Positions 6,974 through 52,469 of a stretch of DNA of 64,000 nt are shown in pieces. A program made the translations under genes and the position numbers. The DNA is from Alphaproteobacteria bacterium. Lineage in GTDB: Bacteria; Pseudomonadota; Alphaproteobacteria; UBA828. Within the stretch, counting starts at the first letter, position 1. Every line of letters begins with the position of its first letter. The notes below the pieces were generated by a model. That model worked only from the letters and a program-made list of their open reading frames with translations. It searched no databases and was not told where the DNA came from. The stretch spans positions 64,001 through 128,000 of the forward strand of contig CAXXVO010000006.1 of NCBI GenBank assembly GCA_963422645.2, read 5' to 3'.

Positions 6974-9331
6974 TCAGACTTCCTGACCTCTGCTGATTTT
7001 AGGTGACACGAGCCGCGCGGATTCCGAGGCCCCGTCGATGTCGTAGACTATGCGCAGACGGGTGCCGGGGAAGACCGTTTCGGTGGCGTTCAGGTCGCTC
7101 AGAACCGCATCGATCCAACGGTCGCAGGCGTCGTTTGCGAGGCCAAGAATGTGGACCCGCAGGAGGCCATTGCCAGGATCCGGCAGGATGTCGGCATCGG
7201 CGGTGAGCAGCGCTTGAAGCAGTTTCCGGGGATGGGGCTTGTGGCCCTGCGCCTGCATGACGGGAAGCATCATGCGGGTTTCGGCGCGGTAGGCGATCAT
7301 CCGGATGACGTCGAGGAGGAGGCGCTCGCGCGCGGGCAAGGCATCGAGCTGCTCGGCTTCGTCGAGGTCGCCGGCCCGGCAGTGCTTGGGCGTCTCCCTG
7401 CGGCTGGCCCTGACGATGTCGCGGACATCCTGGAGGTCCCTGACTTCCCTCCTGAGTTCCGCCGTCGGCTGCTTCTTCCGGGCCGTGTCGGCGATGCGGT
7501 TGCGCAGGCGGCCAAGCTGGCGGTCGAGGCGATGGATTGCCTTGTCATAGGCCCGCCGCAGCGGGTTGACGACCATGGCGGCGGGATCGAGAGGCTCGAG
7601 CTCGTGGGTCGGCAGGGCGTCGAGATTGAACTCGTCACGCATGTACTTGAAGAAGTTCTCCTGCGACCAGCGCGAGAACATGGCGCCCGCAACCTCAGCC
7701 ATCGGCTTGTGCGGATCGGTGGTGATCAGCGGCACCTGACGGCCGTTGTCGAGCAGGCGGCGGATCTGGCGCACCCTGAAGCCGTTCGGCAACGTCACCG
7801 GCTTCTCAGCCAGCCGCATGGTGGCGCTGCCGTCCGCCGCCGGTCCGTGAATGGGAACGGTCATCGCGCCGAAGTCCTCGGCCGGCCAGTCCTCGCCCCT
7901 GAAGTTCTTGTGCCAGGTCAGGCAGGCGACGCCGCGCCTCGCCAGCCGGCGGAACAGATCCGGGCTCCAGCCCTCGCGGTCGAAGACCAGGGTGAGCGCC
8001 GGCTGGCCGGGATGCTCGGCGGTCAGGTCCGGCGCCCCGGCGCCAACGATCCCAAGCTCCTGCAGCGCCGGCACCACGTCGGCTTCGATGGCCGCGACCA
8101 TCTTCGGGTCCAGCGGCTTGTGCAGACAGAGCAGCGGCTTGCCGCCCAGAGCGTTGATCCAGTAGCTGGCGCTCGCCGGCAGGCACAGCTTCTCGCGCGA
8201 GACGAAGTGCTTGGGCAAGCGCCCCTTGCGGCCGGAGTAGACCTTGACGTGCCCGTCGATGGCCAGCGTCGCCCAGAGCTCCGGCTCGTCGGCCTGCCAG
8301 CGCCTGGCAAGGGCGAGCTGCCACGCCCGCACGCCGGCCTCGTCGTCGGCGATGAGAGCGATCTTGCGGCGCAGCGTCTTGACCTCGGGGCAGCGATCGA
8401 GGCCGAGAATGGCGCCCCATTCGCCCGGCGCCTGGTAGCGCAGGCTCTCGGGGTTGCGCACCCGCGCCAAGGTCATGAAGGCCAGGAAGAGCAGGATCGT
8501 AGGCAAGCCGTAATAGCCCTTCGGCAGCAATGGCAGGAGACCGGTCTCGGAGAGAAGACCTTCCTTCAGCAGGGCCGGCAGGGCGGCGAGCACGCCGCCG
8601 AAGCGGACACCGCGGGCGGCGGCGGCGAACTGCGGTTCGACCGGCCCCGCCTGTCCACAACTGGCCAGAACCCGAGCCGGAACATCGCAAGTCGCACGCC
8701 CCATCGGCGCCTGCCGGTCCCGCCGATCGCGCGCGCTGCGATCCGTTTGCGGCTGCGCTTCCAGCCCCGGCGCCGTCTCCGGCCCCGGGGCACCGGTACT
8801 CTCTTCATCGACACGGCCTTCAGGAGCCGCACCCGCGTCAGGCGGCGCAGCCAGCGCTGAGCGTCCGGGCTCCCCATCCGCCTCCGTGTTGCCGATCAGT
8901 CCCTGACGGCGCCACTTGTTGACCGATGGCGCTGACACGCCGAGAACCCGGGCCGCCGCAGAGCCGCTCAGGCCCGATGCCAGCAACGCCGTCGCCTTCT
9001 CCGCCAACTCCGGAGTGAACACCGACGGCCCGCGACCGCGCCGGGGCTTCATGAACCCCGCTTCGCCCTCGGCCAGGTAGCGCCGTCGTGCGCGCTGCAC
9101 CGTCGCGCGCGAGACAGCGAAAGCGTCAGCCAGTTCCTGCGGCGAGACCGCGCTGATCGCCGCGAGGCGGCCGATCCGCAAGAGCATGGCCGTGCGGTCA
9201 TCGGCGGCGTGGCTGTCAAAGGGAATGAGGTTGGAAAAGTAGGTGAAGGTGTCGTCCGAGATCAGGACGGCGAAGCAGCTGTTGCCGATCGAGACCGCCT
9301 CTGGAGGGCACATTGGGAGGGTACTGGGCAT
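6974..9331 (-). CDS. IS-A transposase, 785 aa (HTH plus DDE)
   Basis: N-terminal HTHs; IDGH / FDREG / RWSQENFF catalytic-like motifs; TGA stop is the last 3 nt of the element. Confidence 0.9.
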   Translation of the reverse strand: MPSTLPMCPPEAVSIGNSCFAVLISDDTFTYFSNLIPFDSHAADDRTAMLLRIGRLAAISAVSPQELADAFAVSRATVQRARRRYLAEGEAGFMKPRRGRGPSVFTPELAEKATALLASGLSGSAAARVLGVSAPSVNKWRRQGLIGNTEADGEPGRSALAAPPDAGAAPEGRVDEESTGAPGPETAPGLEAQPQTDRSARDRRDRQAPMGRATCDVPARVLASCGQAGPVEPQFAAAARGVRFGGVLAALPALLKEGLLSETGLLPLLPKGYYGLPTILLFLAFMTLARVRNPESLRYQAPGEWGAILGLDRCPEVKTLRRKIALIADDEAGVRAWQLALARRWQADEPELWATLAIDGHVKVYSGRKGRLPKHFVSREKLCLPASASYWINALGGKPLLCLHKPLDPKMVAAIEADVVPALQELGIVGAGAPDLTAEHPGQPALTLVFDREGWSPDLFRRLARRGVACLTWHKNFRGEDWPAEDFGAMTVPIHGPAADGSATMRLAEKPVTLPNGFRVRQIRRLLDNGRQVPLITTDPHKPMAEVAGAMFSRWSQENFFKYMRDEFNLDALPTHELEPLDPAAMVVNPLRRAYDKAIHRLDRQLGRLRNRIADTARKKQPTAELRREVRDLQDVRDIVRASRRETPKHCRAGDLDEAEQLDALPARERLLLDVIRMIAYRAETRMMLPVMQAQGHKPHPRKLLQALLTADADILPDPGNGLLRVHILGLANDACDRWIDAVLSDLNATETVFPGTRLRIVYDIDGASESARLVSPKISRGQEV

Positions 9332-9486
9332 GGTTGAGACCGTGCAATTGGTATCAAATTATAATATCAGACCTCGGGCGCGACACCCAGCGAAAAACCG
9401 CCTGAAACAACCGAAATGTATCAGAATTCAAGGAGTTCCCGGCACGCTGCCCAGAACAGCCAGCATCACGAGGTCAGGAAGTCTGA
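6974..9486 (-). mobile_element. IS-A copy 1 (2513 bp)
   Basis: Perfect 17-bp IR TCAGACTTCCTGACCTC at both ends; flanked by GTC (6971-6973) and GTC (9487-9489). Confidence 0.95.
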
Positions 9487-9489
9487 GTC

Positions 9490-11847
9490 TCAGACTTCCT
9501 GACCTCTGCTGATTTTAGGTGACACGAGCCGCGCGGATTCCGAGGCCCCGTCGATGTCGTAGACTATGCGCAGACGGGTGCCGGGGAAGACCGTTTCGGT
9601 GGCGTTCAGGTCGCTCAGAACCGCATCGATCCAACGGTCGCAGGCGTCGTTTGCGAGGCCAAGAATGTGGACCCGCAGGAGGCCATTGCCAGGATCCGGC
9701 AGGATGTCGGCATCGGCGGTGAGCAGCGCTTGAAGCAGTTTCCGGGGATGGGGCTTGTGGCCCTGCGCCTGCATGACGGGAAGCATCATGCGGGTTTCGG
9801 CGCGGTAGGCGATCATCCGGATGACGTCGAGGAGGAGGCGCTCGCGCGCGGGCAAGGCATCGAGCTGCTCGGCTTCGTCGAGGTCGCCGGCCCGGCAGTG
9901 CTTGGGCGTCTCCCTGCGGCTGGCCCTGACGATGTCGCGGACATCCTGGAGGTCCCTGACTTCCCTCCTGAGTTCCGCCGTCGGCTGCTTCTTCCGGGCC
10001 GTGTCGGCGATGCGGTTGCGCAGGCGGCCAAGCTGGCGGTCGAGGCGATGGATTGCCTTGTCATAGGCCCGCCGCAGCGGGTTGACGACCATGGCGGCGG
10101 GATCGAGAGGCTCGAGCTCGTGGGTCGGCAGGGCGTCGAGATTGAACTCGTCACGCATGTACTTGAAGAAGTTCTCCTGCGACCAGCGCGAGAACATGGC
10201 GCCCGCAACCTCAGCCATCGGCTTGTGCGGATCGGTGGTGATCAGCGGCACCTGACGGCCGTTGTCGAGCAGGCGGCGGATCTGGCGCACCCTGAAGCCG
10301 TTCGGCAACGTCACCGGCTTCTCAGCCAGCCGCATGGTGGCGCTGCCGTCCGCCGCCGGTCCGTGAATGGGAACGGTCATCGCGCCGAAGTCCTCGGCCG
10401 GCCAGTCCTCGCCCCTGAAGTTCTTGTGCCAGGTCAGGCAGGCGACGCCGCGCCTCGCCAGCCGGCGGAACAGATCCGGGCTCCAGCCCTCGCGGTCGAA
10501 GACCAGGGTGAGCGCCGGCTGGCCGGGATGCTCGGCGGTCAGGTCCGGCGCCCCGGCGCCAACGATCCCAAGCTCCTGCAGCGCCGGCACCACGTCGGCT
10601 TCGATGGCCGCGACCATCTTCGGGTCCAGCGGCTTGTGCAGACAGAGCAGCGGCTTGCCGCCCAGAGCGTTGATCCAGTAGCTGGCGCTCGCCGGCAGGC
10701 ACAGCTTCTCGCGCGAGACGAAGTGCTTGGGCAAGCGCCCCTTGCGGCCGGAGTAGACCTTGACGTGCCCGTCGATGGCCAGCGTCGCCCAGAGCTCCGG
10801 CTCGTCGGCCTGCCAGCGCCTGGCAAGGGCGAGCTGCCACGCCCGCACGCCGGCCTCGTCGTCGGCGATGAGAGCGATCTTGCGGCGCAGCGTCTTGACC
10901 TCGGGGCAGCGATCGAGGCCGAGAATGGCGCCCCATTCGCCCGGCGCCTGGTAGCGCAGGCTCTCGGGGTTGCGCACCCGCGCCAAGGTCATGAAGGCCA
11001 GGAAGAGCAGGATCGTAGGCAAGCCGTAATAGCCCTTCGGCAGCAATGGCAGGAGACCGGTCTCGGAGAGAAGACCTTCCTTCAGCAGGGCCGGCAGGGC
11101 GGCGAGCACGCCGCCGAAGCGGACACCGCGGGCGGCGGCGGCGAACTGCGGTTCGACCGGCCCCGCCTGTCCACAACTGGCCAGAACCCGAGCCGGAACA
11201 TCGCAAGTCGCACGCCCCATCGGCGCCTGCCGGTCCCGCCGATCGCGCGCGCTGCGATCCGTTTGCGGCTGCGCTTCCAGCCCCGGCGCCGTCTCCGGCC
11301 CCGGGGCACCGGTACTCTCTTCATCGACACGGCCTTCAGGAGCCGCACCCGCGTCAGGCGGCGCAGCCAGCGCTGAGCGTCCGGGCTCCCCATCCGCCTC
11401 CGTGTTGCCGATCAGTCCCTGACGGCGCCACTTGTTGACCGATGGCGCTGACACGCCGAGAACCCGGGCCGCCGCAGAGCCGCTCAGGCCCGATGCCAGC
11501 AACGCCGTCGCCTTCTCCGCCAACTCCGGAGTGAACACCGACGGCCCGCGACCGCGCCGGGGCTTCATGAACCCCGCTTCGCCCTCGGCCAGGTAGCGCC
11601 GTCGTGCGCGCTGCACCGTCGCGCGCGAGACAGCGAAAGCGTCAGCCAGTTCCTGCGGCGAGACCGCGCTGATCGCCGCGAGGCGGCCGATCCGCAAGAG
11701 CATGGCCGTGCGGTCATCGGCGGCGTGGCTGTCAAAGGGAATGAGGTTGGAAAAGTAGGTGAAGGTGTCGTCCGAGATCAGGACGGCGAAGCAGCTGTTG
11801 CCGATCGAGACCGCCTCTGGAGGGCACATTGGGAGGGTACTGGGCAT
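9490..11847 (-). CDS. IS-A transposase, 785 aa
   Basis: Translation identical to copy 1. Confidence 0.9.
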   Translation of the reverse strand: MPSTLPMCPPEAVSIGNSCFAVLISDDTFTYFSNLIPFDSHAADDRTAMLLRIGRLAAISAVSPQELADAFAVSRATVQRARRRYLAEGEAGFMKPRRGRGPSVFTPELAEKATALLASGLSGSAAARVLGVSAPSVNKWRRQGLIGNTEADGEPGRSALAAPPDAGAAPEGRVDEESTGAPGPETAPGLEAQPQTDRSARDRRDRQAPMGRATCDVPARVLASCGQAGPVEPQFAAAARGVRFGGVLAALPALLKEGLLSETGLLPLLPKGYYGLPTILLFLAFMTLARVRNPESLRYQAPGEWGAILGLDRCPEVKTLRRKIALIADDEAGVRAWQLALARRWQADEPELWATLAIDGHVKVYSGRKGRLPKHFVSREKLCLPASASYWINALGGKPLLCLHKPLDPKMVAAIEADVVPALQELGIVGAGAPDLTAEHPGQPALTLVFDREGWSPDLFRRLARRGVACLTWHKNFRGEDWPAEDFGAMTVPIHGPAADGSATMRLAEKPVTLPNGFRVRQIRRLLDNGRQVPLITTDPHKPMAEVAGAMFSRWSQENFFKYMRDEFNLDALPTHELEPLDPAAMVVNPLRRAYDKAIHRLDRQLGRLRNRIADTARKKQPTAELRREVRDLQDVRDIVRASRRETPKHCRAGDLDEAEQLDALPARERLLLDVIRMIAYRAETRMMLPVMQAQGHKPHPRKLLQALLTADADILPDPGNGLLRVHILGLANDACDRWIDAVLSDLNATETVFPGTRLRIVYDIDGASESARLVSPKISRGQEV

Positions 11848-12002
11848 GGTTGAGACCGTGCAATTGGTATCAAATTATAATATCAGACCTCGGGCGCGAC
11901 ACCCAGCGAAAAACCGCCTGAAACAACCGAAATGTATCAGAATTCAAGGAGTTCCCGGCACGCTGCCCAGAACAGCCAGCATCACGAGGTCAGGAAGTCT
12001 GA
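9490..12002 (-). mobile_element. IS-A copy 2, head-to-tail with copy 1
   Basis: Same length, IRs and translated ORF as copy 1; 3-bp spacer GTC; right flank GAC. Confidence 0.93.
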
Positions 12003-32361: not shown

Positions 32362-32488
32362 CCGGATTCGCAAAGACTTTCGTCCGGCCCGCCAGACCCC
32401 GGAAACGCCGCCAACCCCTTGACCGTCCGCCATCTTCCGCCTTCTTCCCGGCATCTTCCGGATTCGCAATGACTTTCGTCCCCCTACA
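32362..32488 (+). repeat. Putative transposable-phage right end: two 24-bp direct repeats and terminal ACA
   Basis: CCGGATTCGCAA(A/T)GACTTTCGTCC at 32362-32385 and 32458-32481 (23/24), then CCCTACA abutting IS-A sequence. Confidence 0.65.
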
Positions 32489-32510
32489 CCAATTGCACGG
32501 GGTCTCAACC

Positions 32511-34868
32511 ATGCCCAGTACCCTCCCAATGTGCCCTCCAGAGGCGGTCTCGATCGGCAACAGCTGCTTCGCCGTCCTGATCTCGGACGACACCTTCACC
32601 TACTTTTCCAACCTCATTCCCTTTGACAGCCACGCCGCCGATGACCGCACGGCCATGCTCTTGCGGATCGGCCGCCTCGCGGCGATCAGCGCGGTCTCGC
32701 CGCAGGAACTGGCTGACGCTTTCGCTGTCTCGCGCGCGACGGTGCAGCGCGCACGACGGCGCTACCTGGCCGAGGGCGAAGCGGGGTTCATGAAGCCCCG
32801 GCGCGGTCGCGGGCCGTCGGTGTTCACTCCGGAGTTGGCGGAGAAGGCGACGGCGTTGCTGGCATCGGGCCTGAGCGGCTCTGCGGCGGCCCGGGTTCTC
32901 GGCGTGTCAGCGCCATCGGTCAACAAGTGGCGCCGTCAGGGACTGATCGGCAACACGGAGGCGGATGGGGAGCCCGGACGCTCAGCGCTGGCTGCGCCGC
33001 CTGACGCGGGTGCGGCTCCTGAAGGCCGTGTCGATGAAGAGAGTACCGGTGCCCCGGGGCCGGAGACGGCGCCGGGGCTGGAAGCGCAGCCGCAAACGGA
33101 TCGCAGCGCGCGCGATCGGCGGGACCGGCAGGCGCCGATGGGGCGTGCGACTTGCGATGTTCCGGCTCGGGTTCTGGCCAGTTGTGGACAGGCGGGGCCG
33201 GTCGAACCGCAGTTCGCCGCCGCCGCCCGCGGTGTCCGCTTCGGCGGCGTGCTCGCCGCCCTGCCGGCCCTGCTGAAGGAAGGTCTTCTCTCCGAGACCG
33301 GTCTCCTGCCATTGCTGCCGAAGGGCTATTACGGCTTGCCTACGATCCTGCTCTTCCTGGCCTTCATGACCTTGGCGCGGGTGCGCAACCCCGAGAGCCT
33401 GCGCTACCAGGCGCCGGGCGAATGGGGCGCCATTCTCGGCCTCGATCGCTGCCCCGAGGTCAAGACGCTGCGCCGCAAGATCGCTCTCATCGCCGACGAC
33501 GAGGCCGGCGTGCGGGCGTGGCAGCTCGCCCTTGCCAGGCGCTGGCAGGCCGACGAGCCGGAGCTCTGGGCGACGCTGGCCATCGACGGGCACGTCAAGG
33601 TCTACTCCGGCCGCAAGGGGCGCTTGCCCAAGCACTTCGTCTCGCGCGAGAAGCTGTGCCTGCCGGCGAGCGCCAGCTACTGGATCAACGCTCTGGGCGG
33701 CAAGCCGCTGCTCTGTCTGCACAAGCCGCTGGACCCGAAGATGGTCGCGGCCATCGAAGCCGACGTGGTGCCGGCGCTGCAGGAGCTTGGGATCGTTGGC
33801 GCCGGGGCGCCGGACCTGACCGCCGAGCATCCCGGCCAGCCGGCGCTCACCCTGGTCTTCGACCGCGAGGGCTGGAGCCCGGATCTGTTCCGCCGGCTGG
33901 CGAGGCGCGGCGTCGCCTGCCTGACCTGGCACAAGAACTTCAGGGGCGAGGACTGGCCGGCCGAGGACTTCGGCGCGATGACCGTTCCCATTCACGGACC
34001 GGCGGCGGACGGCAGCGCCACCATGCGGCTGGCTGAGAAGCCGGTGACGTTGCCGAACGGCTTCAGGGTGCGCCAGATCCGCCGCCTGCTCGACAACGGC
34101 CGTCAGGTGCCGCTGATCACCACCGATCCGCACAAGCCGATGGCTGAGGTTGCGGGCGCCATGTTCTCGCGCTGGTCGCAGGAGAACTTCTTCAAGTACA
34201 TGCGTGACGAGTTCAATCTCGACGCCCTGCCGACCCACGAGCTCGAGCCTCTCGATCCCGCCGCCATGGTCGTCAACCCGCTGCGGCGGGCCTATGACAA
34301 GGCAATCCATCGCCTCGACCGCCAGCTTGGCCGCCTGCGCAACCGCATCGCCGACACGGCCCGGAAGAAGCAGCCGACGGCGGAACTCAGGAGGGAAGTC
34401 AGGGACCTCCAGGATGTCCGCGACATCGTCAGGGCCAGCCGCAGGGAGACGCCCAAGCACTGCCGGGCCGGCGACCTCGACGAAGCCGAGCAGCTCGATG
34501 CCTTGCCCGCGCGCGAGCGCCTCCTCCTCGACGTCATCCGGATGATCGCCTACCGCGCCGAAACCCGCATGATGCTTCCCGTCATGCAGGCGCAGGGCCA
34601 CAAGCCCCATCCCCGGAAACTGCTTCAAGCGCTGCTCACCGCCGATGCCGACATCCTGCCGGATCCTGGCAATGGCCTCCTGCGGGTCCACATTCTTGGC
34701 CTCGCAAACGACGCCTGCGACCGTTGGATCGATGCGGTTCTGAGCGACCTGAACGCCACCGAAACGGTCTTCCCCGGCACCCGTCTGCGCATAGTCTACG
34801 ACATCGACGGGGCCTCGGAATCCGCGCGGCTCGTGTCACCTAAAATCAGCAGAGGTCAGGAAGTCTGA
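32511..34868 (+). CDS. IS-A transposase, 785 aa (copy 3)
   Basis: Translation identical to copies 1 and 2 from ATG 32511. Confidence 0.9.
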   Translation: MPSTLPMCPPEAVSIGNSCFAVLISDDTFTYFSNLIPFDSHAADDRTAMLLRIGRLAAISAVSPQELADAFAVSRATVQRARRRYLAEGEAGFMKPRRGRGPSVFTPELAEKATALLASGLSGSAAARVLGVSAPSVNKWRRQGLIGNTEADGEPGRSALAAPPDAGAAPEGRVDEESTGAPGPETAPGLEAQPQTDRSARDRRDRQAPMGRATCDVPARVLASCGQAGPVEPQFAAAARGVRFGGVLAALPALLKEGLLSETGLLPLLPKGYYGLPTILLFLAFMTLARVRNPESLRYQAPGEWGAILGLDRCPEVKTLRRKIALIADDEAGVRAWQLALARRWQADEPELWATLAIDGHVKVYSGRKGRLPKHFVSREKLCLPASASYWINALGGKPLLCLHKPLDPKMVAAIEADVVPALQELGIVGAGAPDLTAEHPGQPALTLVFDREGWSPDLFRRLARRGVACLTWHKNFRGEDWPAEDFGAMTVPIHGPAADGSATMRLAEKPVTLPNGFRVRQIRRLLDNGRQVPLITTDPHKPMAEVAGAMFSRWSQENFFKYMRDEFNLDALPTHELEPLDPAAMVVNPLRRAYDKAIHRLDRQLGRLRNRIADTARKKQPTAELRREVRDLQDVRDIVRASRRETPKHCRAGDLDEAEQLDALPARERLLLDVIRMIAYRAETRMMLPVMQAQGHKPHPRKLLQALLTADADILPDPGNGLLRVHILGLANDACDRWIDAVLSDLNATETVFPGTRLRIVYDIDGASESARLVSPKISRGQEV

Positions 34869-47467: not shown

Positions 47468-47773
47468 CCGTGCGCTTCCCGTAGTGCGGTCTATTTGCGC
47501 CTCCTGGTCATGGGGCTCGTCCTCCTTCTCGTCATGCGTGTCAGCCCGCACGCCATCATAGCGGAACGGCGCGGGCGCCGAGGCGGCCCCCGCCAACGGC
47601 CCCGGACGCGCAACAAATTTTGTAACTACCCAGGTACCCCGCCGCCAGTTCTGAGTGCGTGCTGATGTTGCTTGCCGTCGGTGCCGTTTCGCCGTCGGCG
47701 CGTCGTTGATCCCCGCTTGACTGTATAGGTTCTCTCGCCTATGGGTTGCACTCTCGCATGAGAGGAGCAGCCG

Positions 47774-48442
47774 GTGGGGTATTTCGGGTCGAAGGCGACG
47801 ACCGGTCTGAGCCAGGCGCTGATTGCGCTGATGCCGCGGCACTCTGTCTATATCGAGAGCCATCTTGGGGGCGGGGCGCTGATGAAGCGCAAGCCTGCGG
47901 CCATGCGCTCGATCGGGATCGACCGCGACGAGCGGGCGCTTGAGGCCTTTGGCTGCGACTACCCGGTGGAGTTGGTGCACGGCTGCGCCCATTCCTTCCT
48001 GGCCTCGTTCCCGTTTCTGGGCCCGGAGCTGGTCTACAGCGATCCGCCCTATCTGCACGCGACCCGGCGTTCGTCGCAGCGCTACCGCTTCGAGTACGAG
48101 GAGGCCGACCACGTCGCGCTCCTCGAACTGCTCAAGGGTCTGCCCTGCCAGGTGATGGTCTCGGGCCACCCGTCTGCGCTCTATGACGAGCTGCTGGCGG
48201 GCTGGCGCCGGCTGGCGCTGCAGGTGACGACCCAGGCCCAGGTGCGGACCGAGGTCGTGTGGTTCAACTTCGCGCCTGACCGGGTGCACTGGGCGAGCTT
48301 CGCCGGCCGGAACTTCACCGAGCGCCAGTGCATCAAGCGCAAGGCGGCCAACTGGGGCCGGCGCTACGAGGCCATGCCGGCGGGCGAACGCCTGGCGGTG
48401 CTGGCCGCGATCATGGCCGTCGAGGCCGACGAGGGTTCGTGA
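47774..48442 (+). CDS. Compact Dam-like (alpha-class) amino-methyltransferase
   Basis: GYFGSK (motif X), ESHLGGGA (motif I), YSDPPY (motif IV); GAGGAG RBS. Confidence 0.85.
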   Translation: MGYFGSKATTGLSQALIALMPRHSVYIESHLGGGALMKRKPAAMRSIGIDRDERALEAFGCDYPVELVHGCAHSFLASFPFLGPELVYSDPPYLHATRRSSQRYRFEYEEADHVALLELLKGLPCQVMVSGHPSALYDELLAGWRRLALQVTTQAQVRTEVVWFNFAPDRVHWASFAGRNFTERQCIKRKAANWGRRYEAMPAGERLAVLAAIMAVEADEGS

Positions 48443-49980
48443 CAGTGTCGCGCTGGCACGAGGACCTCGCTGCCCACGACGAGGCCTTCGCGTGCCTGCA
48501 GGACCTTTTCACCCCACAATCCTTCGCAATGACCGCCGTCAAGGCCATTCGGGAATGGGGCCAGGGGTTGCTGCGCCTGAGCGCGGCCCTGGTCAAGGAG
48601 AACGACGCGCTGGAGCGGGAGAACGCCCGCTTGCGCGAGCGGATCGCCGAACTCGAGCGCAGCGCCGCGCTCGACAGCACCACCAGCTCCAAGCCGCCGG
48701 CCAGCGACGGTCTGAAGAAGAAGAGCGGTGACCGGGAGAAGCGCACCCGGAGCCAGCGCGGCAAGTCCGACAGGCCCAGTGGCGGCCAGCCGGGCCACAA
48801 GGGAACTACCCTGGAGCGGACCGCGACGCCCGACCATGTCGTCGATCATGATCCGTCCGCCTGTGAGGGCTGCGGCGCGCCGCTGTCGGACGCTGACCGT
48901 CACGGAGCCCCCGTCTGCCGGCAGGTCTTCGATGTGCCCGAGCCGCAGCCCCTCGAGGTCACCGAACATCGCGGCCATCGTTGCCTCTGCGCTGCCTGCG
49001 GCACCGTGACGACAGCCGTCTTCCCGAACGGCGTGAGCGCACCGGTCCAATACGGGCCGCGCATCACCGCGTGGGTGACCTACCTGCTGCACGCTCAGTT
49101 CATTCCCGAGAAGCGGGTCGCCGAGGTCATGAGCGACCGCTTCGCGGTCAAGCTCTCAACAGCCACCATCGTCGCCATGGGAAGGCGCACCGCCCGGCGC
49201 TTCGAGGGCTTCCTCGATCGCCTCGCGGAGATCATCCGCACCGCAGCCCCAGTCAAACACCTCGACGAGACCGGCATCCGCATCGCCGCCCGGACCCATT
49301 GGCTCCATGTGCTGTGCACCCCGTTGCTCACCATCCTGCGCGTCGCCACCGGGCGCAGCCACATCGACGAGAAGCTCAACGGCATCGTCATCCATGACGA
49401 CTACGCCACCTACTTCGCTCTCGAGGGCGTGCGCCACGGGGCCTGCAACGCCCATCACCTGCGCGAGCTCCAAGCCCTCATCGAGATCGAGAAGGAAGAC
49501 TGGGCAACGAGCACGCACCGGCTCCTCATCCGTGCCAACAGAGCCGCCCGCTTCGCCCACAAGAACGACCGCGACGTGCCCGCCTCACTGGTGGCCCGCA
49601 TCTCGCGAGCCTGGGACCGCATCCTCGAACGTGCCATCGCCTCTCACGAAGAAATGCCACCGCTCCAGACCGGAAAGCGCGGACGACAAAAGCGCCGCAT
49701 CGGTCACAACCTCGCCCTCCGACTCCAGAAGTACAAGGAGGGGTGCCTGCGCTTCCTCACCGATCCGCGAACCCCCTTCTCCAACAACGAGGCCGAGCGC
49801 GACCTCCGAATGGGCAAGCTGCGCCAGAAAATCTCAGGCGGCTTCCGCTCGATACAAGGCGCCCGCGACTTCGCAAACCTGCGATCCGTCATCGCCACCG
49901 CTCGAAAACAGCGCTGGAATGTCCTCGAAACCCTGGCGCACCCCGATCCAATCCAGCTGATCCCCGTATTGCGCTTCTGA
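48439..49980 (+). CDS. IS66-family transposase
   Basis: Coiled coil plus SSKPPASDG, GGQPGHKG, two CxxC pairs, HLDETG / IHDDY / NNEAERDLR; GTGA overlap with MTase stop. Confidence 0.93.
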   Translation: MTVSRWHEDLAAHDEAFACLQDLFTPQSFAMTAVKAIREWGQGLLRLSAALVKENDALERENARLRERIAELERSAALDSTTSSKPPASDGLKKKSGDREKRTRSQRGKSDRPSGGQPGHKGTTLERTATPDHVVDHDPSACEGCGAPLSDADRHGAPVCRQVFDVPEPQPLEVTEHRGHRCLCAACGTVTTAVFPNGVSAPVQYGPRITAWVTYLLHAQFIPEKRVAEVMSDRFAVKLSTATIVAMGRRTARRFEGFLDRLAEIIRTAAPVKHLDETGIRIAARTHWLHVLCTPLLTILRVATGRSHIDEKLNGIVIHDDYATYFALEGVRHGACNAHHLRELQALIEIEKEDWATSTHRLLIRANRAARFAHKNDRDVPASLVARISRAWDRILERAIASHEEMPPLQTGKRGRQKRRIGHNLALRLQKYKEGCLRFLTDPRTPFSNNEAERDLRMGKLRQKISGGFRSIQGARDFANLRSVIATARKQRWNVLETLAHPDPIQLIPVLRF

Positions 49981-50104
49981 AATCCTGCGCTGCTCCGGGA
50001 AAGCGCCGCCTGACCCCTGGCTGGTCAGAACCATCAATCCATCACGTCCGAGTGCTCGGCAGAATCAGACCTGGGCAGTTACCAAATTTTGTCCAGGATT
50101 CGCC

Positions 50105-50165
50105 GGGACAAGTGGGATGTAAGTGGGATAAGTGGGACAAGTGGGATAAGTGGGACAGGCGGGAT
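50105..50165 (+). repeat. G-rich 9-bp tandem repeat GGGA(C/T)AAGT
   Basis: About six units plus a partial one; one unit carries a 2-nt insertion. Confidence 0.85.
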
Positions 50166-50309: not shown

Positions 50310-52469
50310 TCAGACTTCCTGACCTCGTGATGCTGGCTGTTCTGGGCAGCGTGCCGGGAACTCCTTGAATTCTGATACATTTCGGTTGTTTCAGGCGGTT
50401 TTTCGCTGGGTGTCGCGCCCGAGGTCTGATATTATAATTTGATACCAATTGCACGGTCTCAACCATGCCCAGTACCCTCCCAATGTGCCCTCCAGAGGCG
50501 GTCTCGATCGGCAACAGCTGCTTCGCCGTCCTGATCTCGGACGACACCTTCACCTACTTTTCCAACCTCATTCCCTTTGACAGCCACGCCGCCGATGACC
50601 GCACGGCCATGCTCTTGCGGATCGGCCGCCTCGCGGCGATCAGCGCGGTCTCGCCGCAGGAACTGGCTGACGCTTTCGCTGTCTCGCGCGCGACGGTGCA
50701 GCGCGCACGACGGCGCTACCTGGCCGAGGGCGAAGCGGGGTTCATGAAGCCCCGGCGCGGTCGCGGGCCGTCGGTGTTCACTCCGGAGTTGGCGGAGAAG
50801 GCGACGGCGTTGCTGGCATCGGGCCTGAGCGGCTCTGCGGCGGCCCGGGTTCTCGGCGTGTCAGCGCCATCGGTCAACAAGTGGCGCCGTCAGGGACTGA
50901 TCGGCAACACGGAGGCGGATGGGGAGCCCGGACGCTCAGCGCTGGCTGCGCCGCCTGACGCGGGTGCGGCTCCTGAAGGCCGTGTCGATGAAGAGAGTAC
51001 CGGTGCCCCGGGGCCGGAGACGGCGCCGGGGCTGGAAGCGCAGCCGCAAACGGATCGCAGCGCGCGCGATCGGCGGGACCGGCAGGCGCCGATGGGGCGT
51101 GCGACTTGCGATGTTCCGGCTCGGGTTCTGGCCAGTTGTGGACAGGCGGGGCCGGTCGAACCGCAGTTCGCCGCCGCCGCCCGCGGTGTCCGCTTCGGCG
51201 GCGTGCTCGCCGCCCTGCCGGCCCTGCTGAAGGAAGGTCTTCTCTCCGAGACCGGTCTCCTGCCATTGCTGCCGAAGGGCTATTACGGCTTGCCTACGAT
51301 CCTGCTCTTCCTGGCCTTCATGACCTTGGCGCGGGTGCGCAACCCCGAGAGCCTGCGCTACCAGGCGCCGGGCGAATGGGGCGCCATTCTCGGCCTCGAT
51401 CGCTGCCCCGAGGTCAAGACGCTGCGCCGCAAGATCGCTCTCATCGCCGACGACGAGGCCGGCGTGCGGGCGTGGCAGCTCGCCCTTGCCAGGCGCTGGC
51501 AAGGCCGACGAGCCGGAGCTCTGGGCGACGCTGGCCATCGACGGGCACGTCAAGGTCTACTCCGGCCGCAAGGGGCGCTTGCCCAAGCACTTCGTCTCGC
51601 GCGAGAAGCTGTGCCTGCCGGCGAGCGCCAGCTACTGGATCAACGCTCTGGGCGGCAAGCCGCTGCTCTGTCTGCACAAGCCGCTGGACCCGAAGATGGT
51701 CGCGGCCATCGAAGCCGACGTGGTGCCGGCGCTGCAGGAGCTTGGGATCGTTGGCGCCGGGGCGCCGGACCTGACCGCCGAGCATCCCGGCCAGCCGGCG
51801 CTCACCCTGGTCTTCAATCTCGACGCCCTGCCGACCCACGAGCTCGAGCCTCTCGATCCCGCCGCCATGGTCGTCAACCCGCTGCGGCGGGCCTATGACA
51901 AGGCAATCCATCGCCTCGACCGCCAGCTTGGCCGCCTGCGCAACCGCATCGCCGACACGGCCCGGAAGAAGCAGCCGACGGCGGAACTCAGGAGGGAAGT
52001 CAGGGACCTCCAGGATGTCCGCGACATCGTCAGGGCCAGCCGCAGGGAGACGCCCAAGCACTGCCGGGCCGGCGACCTCGACGAAGCCGAGCAGCTCGAT
52101 GCCTTGCCCGCGCGCGAGCGCCTCCTCCTCGACGTCATCCGGATGATCGCCTACCGCGCCGAAACCCGCATGATGCTTCCCGTCATGCAGGCGCAGGGCC
52201 ACAAGCCCCATCCCCGGAAACTGCTTCAAGCGCTGCTCACCGCCGATGCCGACATCCTGCCGGATCCTGGCAATGGCCTCCTGCGGGTCCACATTCTTGG
52301 CCTCGCAAACGACGCCTGCGACCGTTGGATCGATGCGGTTCTGAGCGACCTGAACGCCACCGAAACGGTCTTCCCCGGCACCCGTCTGCGCATAGTCTAC
52401 GACATCGACGGGGCCTCGGAATCCGCGCGGCTCGTGTCACCTAAAATCAGCAGAGGTCAGGAAGTCTGA
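50310..52469 (+). mobile_element. IS-A copy 4, internally deleted (2160 bp)
   Basis: Both IRs intact; +1 A near 51502; 354-bp deletion at TTC microhomology (junction 51815); 2513+1-354=2160. Confidence 0.92.
50465..52469 (+). pseudogene. Defective IS-A transposase
   Basis: Frameshift plus loss of the segment containing FDREG and RWSQEN. Confidence 0.88.

Follow-up and report, generated by a model that had tools for sequence, protein, structure and literature searches.

Control of transposition by methylation is a textbook case, and so far it has depended on the Dam methylase of the host: the transposase promoter of the insertion sequence (IS) IS10 is under host Dam control, like that of IS50, and both elements block the translation of read-in transcripts by a hairpin. 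In IS50, the transposase promoter is described as Dam-sensitive via GATC sites that lie in the promoter (PMC4265352, excerpt). Within the IS66 family, a group of elements with a single open reading frame (ORF), the ISBst12 group, has been described, and for one of them, ISDge4, the terminal repeats GTGACTACTCAGCA/GTAACTGCTCAGCA and an 8-bp repeat are given (PMC12898284, excerpt). The element that we describe here lies in a window of 64,000 nucleotides, i.e., the whole stretch of DNA that was analysed (positions 64,001 to 128,000 of the forward strand of contig CAXXVO010000006.1, assembly GCA_963422645.2 of an Alphaproteobacteria bacterium). Like the members of the ISBst12 group (ISDge4, ISGst1 and ISGka4), it combines an IS66 DDE transposase with terminal repeats that start with GTAAC and an 8-bp target duplication, and it lacks tnpA/tnpB; unlike them, it adds upstream of the transposase gene an apparently translationally coupled DNA methyltransferase gene (the methylase) with its own promoter module. 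We are close to certain of this structural description, namely that of a mobile IS66-type element bearing a conserved and portable methylase cassette. IS66 elements with a single ORF, Dam-family enzymes, Dam-regulated transposase promoters and orphan plasmid methylases are already established. In the open full-text literature (with few subscription papers; ISfinder, TnCentral and REBASE were outside the scope of the search), neither a methylase-bearing group of IS66 elements nor a cassette that occurs in several IS families was found described, and the element studied here is a real, ordinary-looking and apparently undescribed variant of IS66.

The features of the element are collected in Table 1. 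Its left and right inverted repeats are complementary at 13 of 14 positions, and in the ORF list the methylase and the transposase frame are the only two long sense ORFs inside the element. The transposase matched the family profile NF033517 (E = 2e-84, 283.9 bits against a cut-off of 180) as well as the Pfam entries PF03050 (E = 4.5e-38), DUF6444 and zf-IS66. The traits of the IS66 family are present (terminal inverted repeats that start with GTAA and an 8-bp target duplication), but the canonical three-gene layout of the family is not: tnpA and tnpB are absent, and because the sole other ORF is the methylase, the element was read as the single-ORF ISBst12-like layout with one gene added. It is also a passenger-gene IS in the general sense of that term, since a non-transposase gene is enclosed by the ends and moves with them. 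The stop codon TGA of the methylase (48440-48442) and the GTG start of the transposase (48439) share the letters GTGA, and GAGGG is found 5-6 nt ahead of this GTG; to judge from the stop/start overlap, the two genes are translationally coupled. A fusion of the two proteins by frameshifting was considered and rejected, as no slippery run was seen in the upstream-open part of the transposase frame in the window (37 codons) and, in the loci L014-L016, the stop-to-stop frame opens just 7 nt before the end of the methylase. The original prediction, made from the sequence alone, had listed the 14-bp repeats, the 8-bp duplication, exactly two genes (a 222-aa methylase and a transposase) overlapping by GTGA, and the lack of tnpA/tnpB, and all of these were seen again in the sequence.

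Table 1. Features of the methylase-bearing IS66-family element (positions in the window).
Feature	Position	Strand	Remarks
IS66-family element, whole	47622-50082		2461 bp; two genes between inverted repeats
Target-site duplication CAAATTTT, left copy	47614-47621		8 bp
Left terminal inverted repeat GTAACTACCCAGGT	47622-47635	+	14 bp; identical in the 14 full copies of the own genome
-35-like hexamer TTGACT of the cassette promoter	47717-47722	+	Aligned position kept in 20 distinct cassettes
Dyad ATAG-N10-CTAT	47725-47742		18 bp; in the promoter spacer, overlaps the -10
-10-like hexamer TATGGG	47740-47745	+	17 nt past the -35
Leader stem-loop	47746-47770	+	Shine-Dalgarno GGAG (47764-47767) in the 3' arm
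Dam-like DNA adenine methyltransferase gene	47774-48442	+	222 aa; GTG start; DPPY = residues 90-93
IS66-family transposase gene	48439-49980	+	513 aa; GTG start overlaps the methylase stop
Right terminal inverted repeat ACCTGGGCAGTTAC (as read on the + strand)	50069-50082	-	14 bp
Target-site duplication CAAATTTT, right copy	50083-50090		8 bp

The genome from which the window was taken (the own genome; 5.9 Mb in 23 contigs) contains 14 full-length copies of the 2461-bp unit, which are 97-100% identical, a recurrence well beyond chance. Perfect 8-bp duplications, each of them different, flank 11 of the 14 copies; the sequences on the two sides of the other three are unrelated, which is what recombination between copies would produce. 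The genome also carries dozens of copies of a sister element that matches both genes at about 82% identity. By tblastn, 76 full-length methylase genes were found in this genome (23 near 100% identity, 50 near 86% and 3 other), and the downstream ORF matches the IS66 transposase of the window in 74 of the 75 that were scored (one of the 76 has no downstream ORF of at least 150 aa). The element is an intact and recently active IS of the IS66 family, of the tnpA/tnpB-less (ISBst12-like) type.

Homologues of the methylase are numerous: 2873 were found at E <=0.001 in a word-indexed search (the best 120 of them are 68-96% identical and 185-264 aa long), and an exhaustive search gave 5949 cluster representatives at E <=0.001, with 479 at E <=1e-30. 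In a collection holding one genome per species, 133 stretches encode a relative of the methylase, the best 80 of which were analysed. These 80 foreign loci come nearly all from metagenome-assembled genomes (MAGs), labelled as Alphaproteobacteria, Paracoccaceae, Thalassobaculaceae, Binatia, Dehalococcoidia, Tectimicrobiota, Planctomycetota, Uhrbacteria and Ectothiorhodospiraceae. Downstream of the methylase, an ORF matching the transposase of the window was present at 69 of the 80 loci (five of these transposases are just 27-30% identical to it), an IS701-family transposase at six (L077 was scanned with profiles, NF049999, E = 4e-92; the other five were assigned by near-identity to L077), an ISKra4-family transposase at one (NF033572, E = 6.5e-103), an IS630 transposase at one (L079), and none or a truncated frame at three. 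Repeats of the GTAAC type were found on both sides of 59 of the 80 loci, 42 of which also have a perfect 8-bp duplication and 17 an imperfect one or none (several are off by one base); the left repeat alone was found at seven loci and no such repeat at 14, among them short contigs and the loci of the IS701 and ISKra4 type. The original prediction had held that the methylase and the transposase gene transpose as one unit, and had proposed as a check the number of homologues that lie inside GTAAC-type repeats with 8-bp duplications. The repeats and perfect duplications around 11 of the 14 own copies and 42 of the 80 foreign loci bear it out, and the one-off capture that had been named as its counter-case is at odds with the IS66 transposases found behind the methylase in both data sets (74/75 and 69/80). 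Among 301 sampled genomes of the same class, nine match the methylase (E <=1e-10), and the close form occurs in just four of these nine, the own genome included; neither of the two genomes of the same family that were searched has a match. The spread is patchy, as expected of a horizontally moving element.

The cassette, which consists of the promoter, the dyad, the leader hairpin and the methylase gene, is portable and was found with three transposase families. In the IS701-type element (2781 bp), which has its own terminal repeats (AGCTCGACTTTGTACA...), the methylase lies inside these ends and upstream of the transposase, and 5-bp CTNAG duplications were present in all five copies examined (from three genomes). 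In the ISKra4-type element, the methylase and transposase genes lie between 23-nt repeats (91% complementary), outside which AATGACA stands at each end. The methylases in the IS701 and ISKra4 elements are 72-85% identical to the IS66-borne one, and the ends of the IS66, IS701 and ISKra4 elements that carry the cassette have no repeats in common. IS630 was rejected as a fourth family, as L079 retains the IS66-type left end and has just the cassette in common with its sister locus L080, and the IS630 element was read as a later insertion nested in an IS66-type element.

In a maximum likelihood tree of 34 methylase sequences (midpoint root; several of the plasmid branches are long), the IS-borne methylases formed one group (support 82/87) with the plasmid-borne relatives outside as its sister group, and the IS701-borne methylases nested deep among the IS66-borne ones (support 98/96). 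Conservation is much stronger in the methylase than in the transposases that accompany it: methylases that are 68-75% identical stand before IS66 transposases that are 27-30% identical. The synonymous distance of the methylase was about half that of the adjacent transposase in four of six pairwise comparisons (own genome, loci L014-L072), which fits an exchange of the cassette between elements; codon constraint on the methylase could also explain it. On plasmids, the closest relatives of the transposase (45-47% identity) belong to IS66 elements that have this one gene and no methylase, and plasmid relatives that bear a name are of the ISGst1/ISGka4 type (34-37% identity), which places the transposase in the ISBst12-like single-ORF group.

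The methylase itself had no Pfam match at E <=0.01, and TIGR00571 matched residues 85-154 (E = 3e-6) with 27.1 bits against a cut-off of 114.85, i.e., far below the score threshold of the Dam family (TIGR00571/PF02086); a few of its close homologues bear a precomputed PF02086 label. The S-adenosylmethionine (AdoMet)-binding motif and DPPY are present in the order of the alpha class. Over 44 relatives (37-71% identity), the residues G5, H23, G32, D90, P91, P92, H113, S130, G178 and R184 were invariant, and K7, Y93, G131 and Y132 nearly so. A profile made from this alignment retrieved DpnM (E = 2e-10) and E. coli Dam among the sequences of the PDB; residues 2-70 of the methylase align with DpnM 16-82 and residues 81-160 with DpnM 183-267, and the intervening DpnM residues 83-182 (about 100 residues, the target-recognition segment) have no counterpart. 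The AlphaFold model (predicted local distance difference test, pLDDT, 92.2; predicted template modelling score, pTM, 0.87) shows a Rossmann-type core and, after it, a C-terminal hairpin of two long helices (181-200 and 203-220), with no recognition domain; the top fold matches by Foldseek were E. coli Dam, Mcbe1 and DpnM, with a template modelling score of about 0.5. Across the family a basic C-terminal segment is kept (G-x-x-F-R-E-R-x-R-I-K-R-K...E-R), and this segment is the obvious candidate for DNA contact. The methylase thus shares with the alpha-class enzymes Dam and DpnM (TIGR00571, PF02086), its best matches in sequence and fold, the N-terminal AdoMet-binding motifs and the DPPY region, and it differs from them in the missing recognition segment, in the basic two-helix hairpin and in its scores below the cut-offs. 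DPPY at residue 90 with loss of the recognition insert, and a basic C-terminal extension, had both been noted beforehand; the first is upheld by the alignment of the family profile with DpnM and E. coli Dam, the second by its conservation in the family alignment and the helical hairpin of the model.

The ratio of nonsynonymous to synonymous substitution rates (dN/dS) was 0.18-0.29 for the methylase against six relatives and 0.11-0.41 for the transposase, values that put the methylase under purifying selection, with a constraint similar to that on the transposase. Given this ratio and the conserved catalytic motifs, the protein is a maintained and probably active methyltransferase. More distant relatives on plasmids (loci L128, L129, L130 and L131; 44-47% identity) have quite different neighbours: three of them lie beside glycosylase-like, nitroreductase or dehydrogenase, and 7-cyano-7-deazaguanine synthase genes, and one lies ahead of cysteine desulfurase and DUF4007 genes, which suggests links with other DNA-modification systems.

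About 60 nt upstream of the methylase start can be aligned across the cassettes of all three IS families, and farther upstream the sequence is specific to each family. The promoter in this stretch has the form TTGAC(T/A), 17 nt, TATGGG or TATGCT. That of the window (TTGACT-17-TATGGG) matches the sigma-70 consensus at 8 of 12 positions, the -35 and the -10 counted together, and the homologous TTGACA-17-TATGCT of L090 and L088 at 10 of 12; the latter was the sole site returned there by a strict sigma-70 scan. A conserved TAG in the spacer and a C before the -10 form the dyad ATAG-N10-CTAT, which stands at exactly the same place in about 17 of 20 distinct cassettes (printed spacers read by eye). 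In the own genome the dyad occurs 83 times against about six expected from the half-site counts, the halves occur 0-10 times at the other spacings from 6 to 15, and 79 of the 83 dyads lie within these IS promoters. The four sites elsewhere, against the six or so expected, give no signal of avoidance of the dyad outside the elements in this genome. The dyad was also found upstream of orphan methylase relatives on four of ten plasmids examined, in 1-3 copies (two each on a Photobacterium IncP plasmid and a Xanthomonas plasmid, one on a Lichenicola plasmid and three on a Sphingomonas plasmid), and two plasmids of a more distant clade have a different dyad, CATCGTCA...TGACGATG, at the equivalent promoter position. 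As the dyad precedes plasmid orphans too, it belongs to the methylase and not to the insertion sequence. The leader stem-loop begins 0-4 nt past the -10 and stops 6-7 nt short of the start codon; that of the window has a folding energy of -11.7 kcal/mol (z -1.4). Of 20 cassettes, 18 have a hairpin at the equivalent place, and among the divergent ones its sequence is quite different. One consensus RNA structure common to all leaders was considered and rejected, as the registers of the stem differ between subgroups.

The reading that we tentatively prefer, at somewhat less than an even chance, is self-encoded control of transposase expression at the dyad in the methylase's own promoter. The cassette (promoter, 18-bp dyad, leader hairpin and methylase gene), placed upstream, would have taken over the expression of the transposase, and the methylase would bind the dyad of its own promoter, methylate it, or do both. 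Once enough methylase is present, transcription of the methylase-transposase operon would be shut off, and replication, by leaving the dyad unmethylated or hemimethylated, would briefly re-open it. Transcription is expected to start about 7 nt past the -10, inside the 5' arm of the leader stem; because the hairpin starts right after the -10, the full stem would form only in transcripts that read in from outside, and it would block their translation. Regulation at the promoter appears more likely than regulation at the IS ends, since the cassette moves between families with unrelated ends and no conserved cis element other than the dyad accompanies the methylase. M.SsoII and M.EcoRII, which are C5-cytosine methylases with an N-terminal helix-turn-helix in restriction-modification systems, repress their own promoters by operator binding, and the dyad at the methylase promoter suggests a similar autoregulation here, the binding being putative. 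A methylatable site that overlaps the transposase promoter, as it would be in this element, recalls the Dam control of IS50 (PMC4265352, excerpt). The difference is that IS10 and IS50 use host Dam and GATC, whereas here both the methylase and a private 18-bp dyad come with the element. With such a cassette, elements may time their own jumping by a self-made methyl mark. It is possible, though doubtful, that the cassette is a self-contained epigenetic timer, by which the transposase would be made briefly after replication or after entry into a naive cell, and that at least three unrelated transposase families captured it from plasmid orphan methylases, for independence from the host.

Several observations weigh against control at the promoter dyad. 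The strict sigma-70 scan returned 0 sites in the element of the window, where its own promoter fails, and just the more distant cassettes of L090 and L088 pass it. Six of the ten plasmid relatives have no such dyad within 300 nt upstream, and the C-terminal hairpin of the protein is kept in dyad-less plasmid relatives too, so it is not specific to the clade with the dyad. The centres of the half-sites are 14 bp apart, which is unusual for a simple dimeric repressor. The leader hairpin of the window folds modestly better than shuffled sequences (the z value given above), and a pair count lends it moderate support: the window structure, applied to 18 closer sequences, was 82.6% paired against 45-75% when it was slid along them, and four pairs were changed on both sides, in a count that used the structure of one of its own 18 sequences and in an alignment where the register shifts between subgroups. 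In three studies, RNA-library contigs cover relatives of both genes that are 90-99% identical, and the gene junction is bridged by one contig; this is a weak hint, as these are contigs that give no start, strand or level and DNA carry-over is possible.

An alternative that we consider unlikely is an anti-restriction or self-marking methylase, which would methylate a short or loose motif genome-wide and shield the element-bearing DNA after transfer, so that its link with the transposase would be one of co-expression. Orphan methylases of conjugative plasmids are thought to guard DNA against restriction, and the nearest non-IS relatives of the methylase (44-53% identity) are indeed orphan 'DNA adenine methylase' genes, found in 198 plasmid records, 134 of them typed as conjugative, where they adjoin transfer, partition or radC-type genes. 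These orphans (e.g., on pP9014 and pCIX2779_1) are of equal length, have the C-terminal hairpin and, in the four plasmids of ten named above, the dyad; they differ from the IS-borne methylases in that they stand alone, with no transposase behind, and form the sister group of the IS-borne clade. The patchy distribution (a match in 9 of the 301 class genomes sampled, and several phyla among the MAG labels) is typical of horizontal transfer, and the loss of the Dam recognition domain could mean a relaxed specificity. However, an insertion sequence does not enter a cell alone, and a shield would mostly serve its vector; moreover, a shield accounts neither for the three transposase families that retain the gene directly upstream with the identical promoter, dyad and hairpin, nor for the confinement of the dyad to these promoters.

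In a further alternative, the methylase is a transposition cofactor in place of TnpA/TnpB that marks donor or target DNA or aids the assembly of the transpososome, with no part in expression control. The methylase does occupy the position of the canonical IS66 accessory genes upstream of the transposase, the translational coupling suggests a fixed stoichiometry, and a partner protein could supply the missing recognition domain. Yet a methylase that is 72-85% identical serves IS701 and ISKra4 transposases unrelated to that of IS66, so that a specific contact is unlikely, and the closest plasmid relatives of the transposase, which are without a methylase, indicate that the transposase does not need one; we regard such a cofactor as quite improbable. 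That the methylase is a plain passenger, a hitch-hiker without a role retained by lying between the ends, is very improbable in spite of the orphan relatives outside insertion sequences and of the insertion sequences with passenger genes, methyltransferases included, that are catalogued in ISfinder, since it is constrained about like the transposase (dN/dS 0.18-0.29), its catalytic residues are invariant, hundreds of copies in three IS families show one and the same gene order, overlap and promoter, and in L090 and L088 the cassette gives the only promoter-like site upstream of the transposase.

If control at the promoter dyad is true, mobile DNA can carry a complete epigenetic switch, i.e., its own methylase and a private site, and this switch is exchangeable between transposon families. 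The main interest of the element lies in the conserved, exchangeable methylase-promoter module. The enzyme is also of interest in itself, as a Dam-like methylase of about 220 residues without the usual recognition domain and with a family of thousands. Automatic annotation leaves such genes as free-standing 'DNA adenine methylase' or unnamed beside an 'IS66 family transposase', and surveys of methylomes or defence systems may take for host methylases dozens of genes that in fact belong to insertion sequences (this genome has 76).

The own genome is very rich in insertion sequences, with dozens of copies each of the studied element, of its 82% identical sister, of a 2.5-kb IS and of another element of the IS66 type, the third (more than 80 matches, at about 79% identity over 160 bp). 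Several IS copies have common flanks, which points to segmental duplication or to recombination between copies. The 2.5-kb IS is 2512 bp long, has the ends CAGACTTCCTGACCTC and carries a gene of the Transposase_29 type; 67-74 copies of it in the genome are nearly full-length, and in the window it lies at 50311-52467, 6976-9485, 9492-12001 and 32488-34866. The copy that adjoins the studied element has an internal loss of about 350 bp, by which its transposase is split into the ORFs 50465-51898 and 51486-52469. The 2.5-kb IS, or a shortened form of it, interrupts at least 17 other copies of the studied element at an identical AGGTT (e.g., G000 C10:125238-130216); this site is element position 106-111, which corresponds to window 47727-47732 and separates the -35 from the -10 of the methylase promoter. 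The 2.5-kb IS is also inserted at element position 2092 (AACCT), and some of these composites retain the 8-bp duplication around the whole. The 17 common junctions in the promoter may be a single event that was copied later or may reflect a preferred target of the 2.5-kb IS, of which 4 of 67 full copies, no more, sit at the methylase-promoter junction.

In the neighbourhood of the studied element, a glycerophosphodiester phosphodiesterase gene lies on the opposite strand at a distance of about 150 bp, with the element upstream of the gene. Directly past the right target duplication there is a tandem repeat of the 9-bp unit AAGTGGGAY (about six units, 50105-50165).

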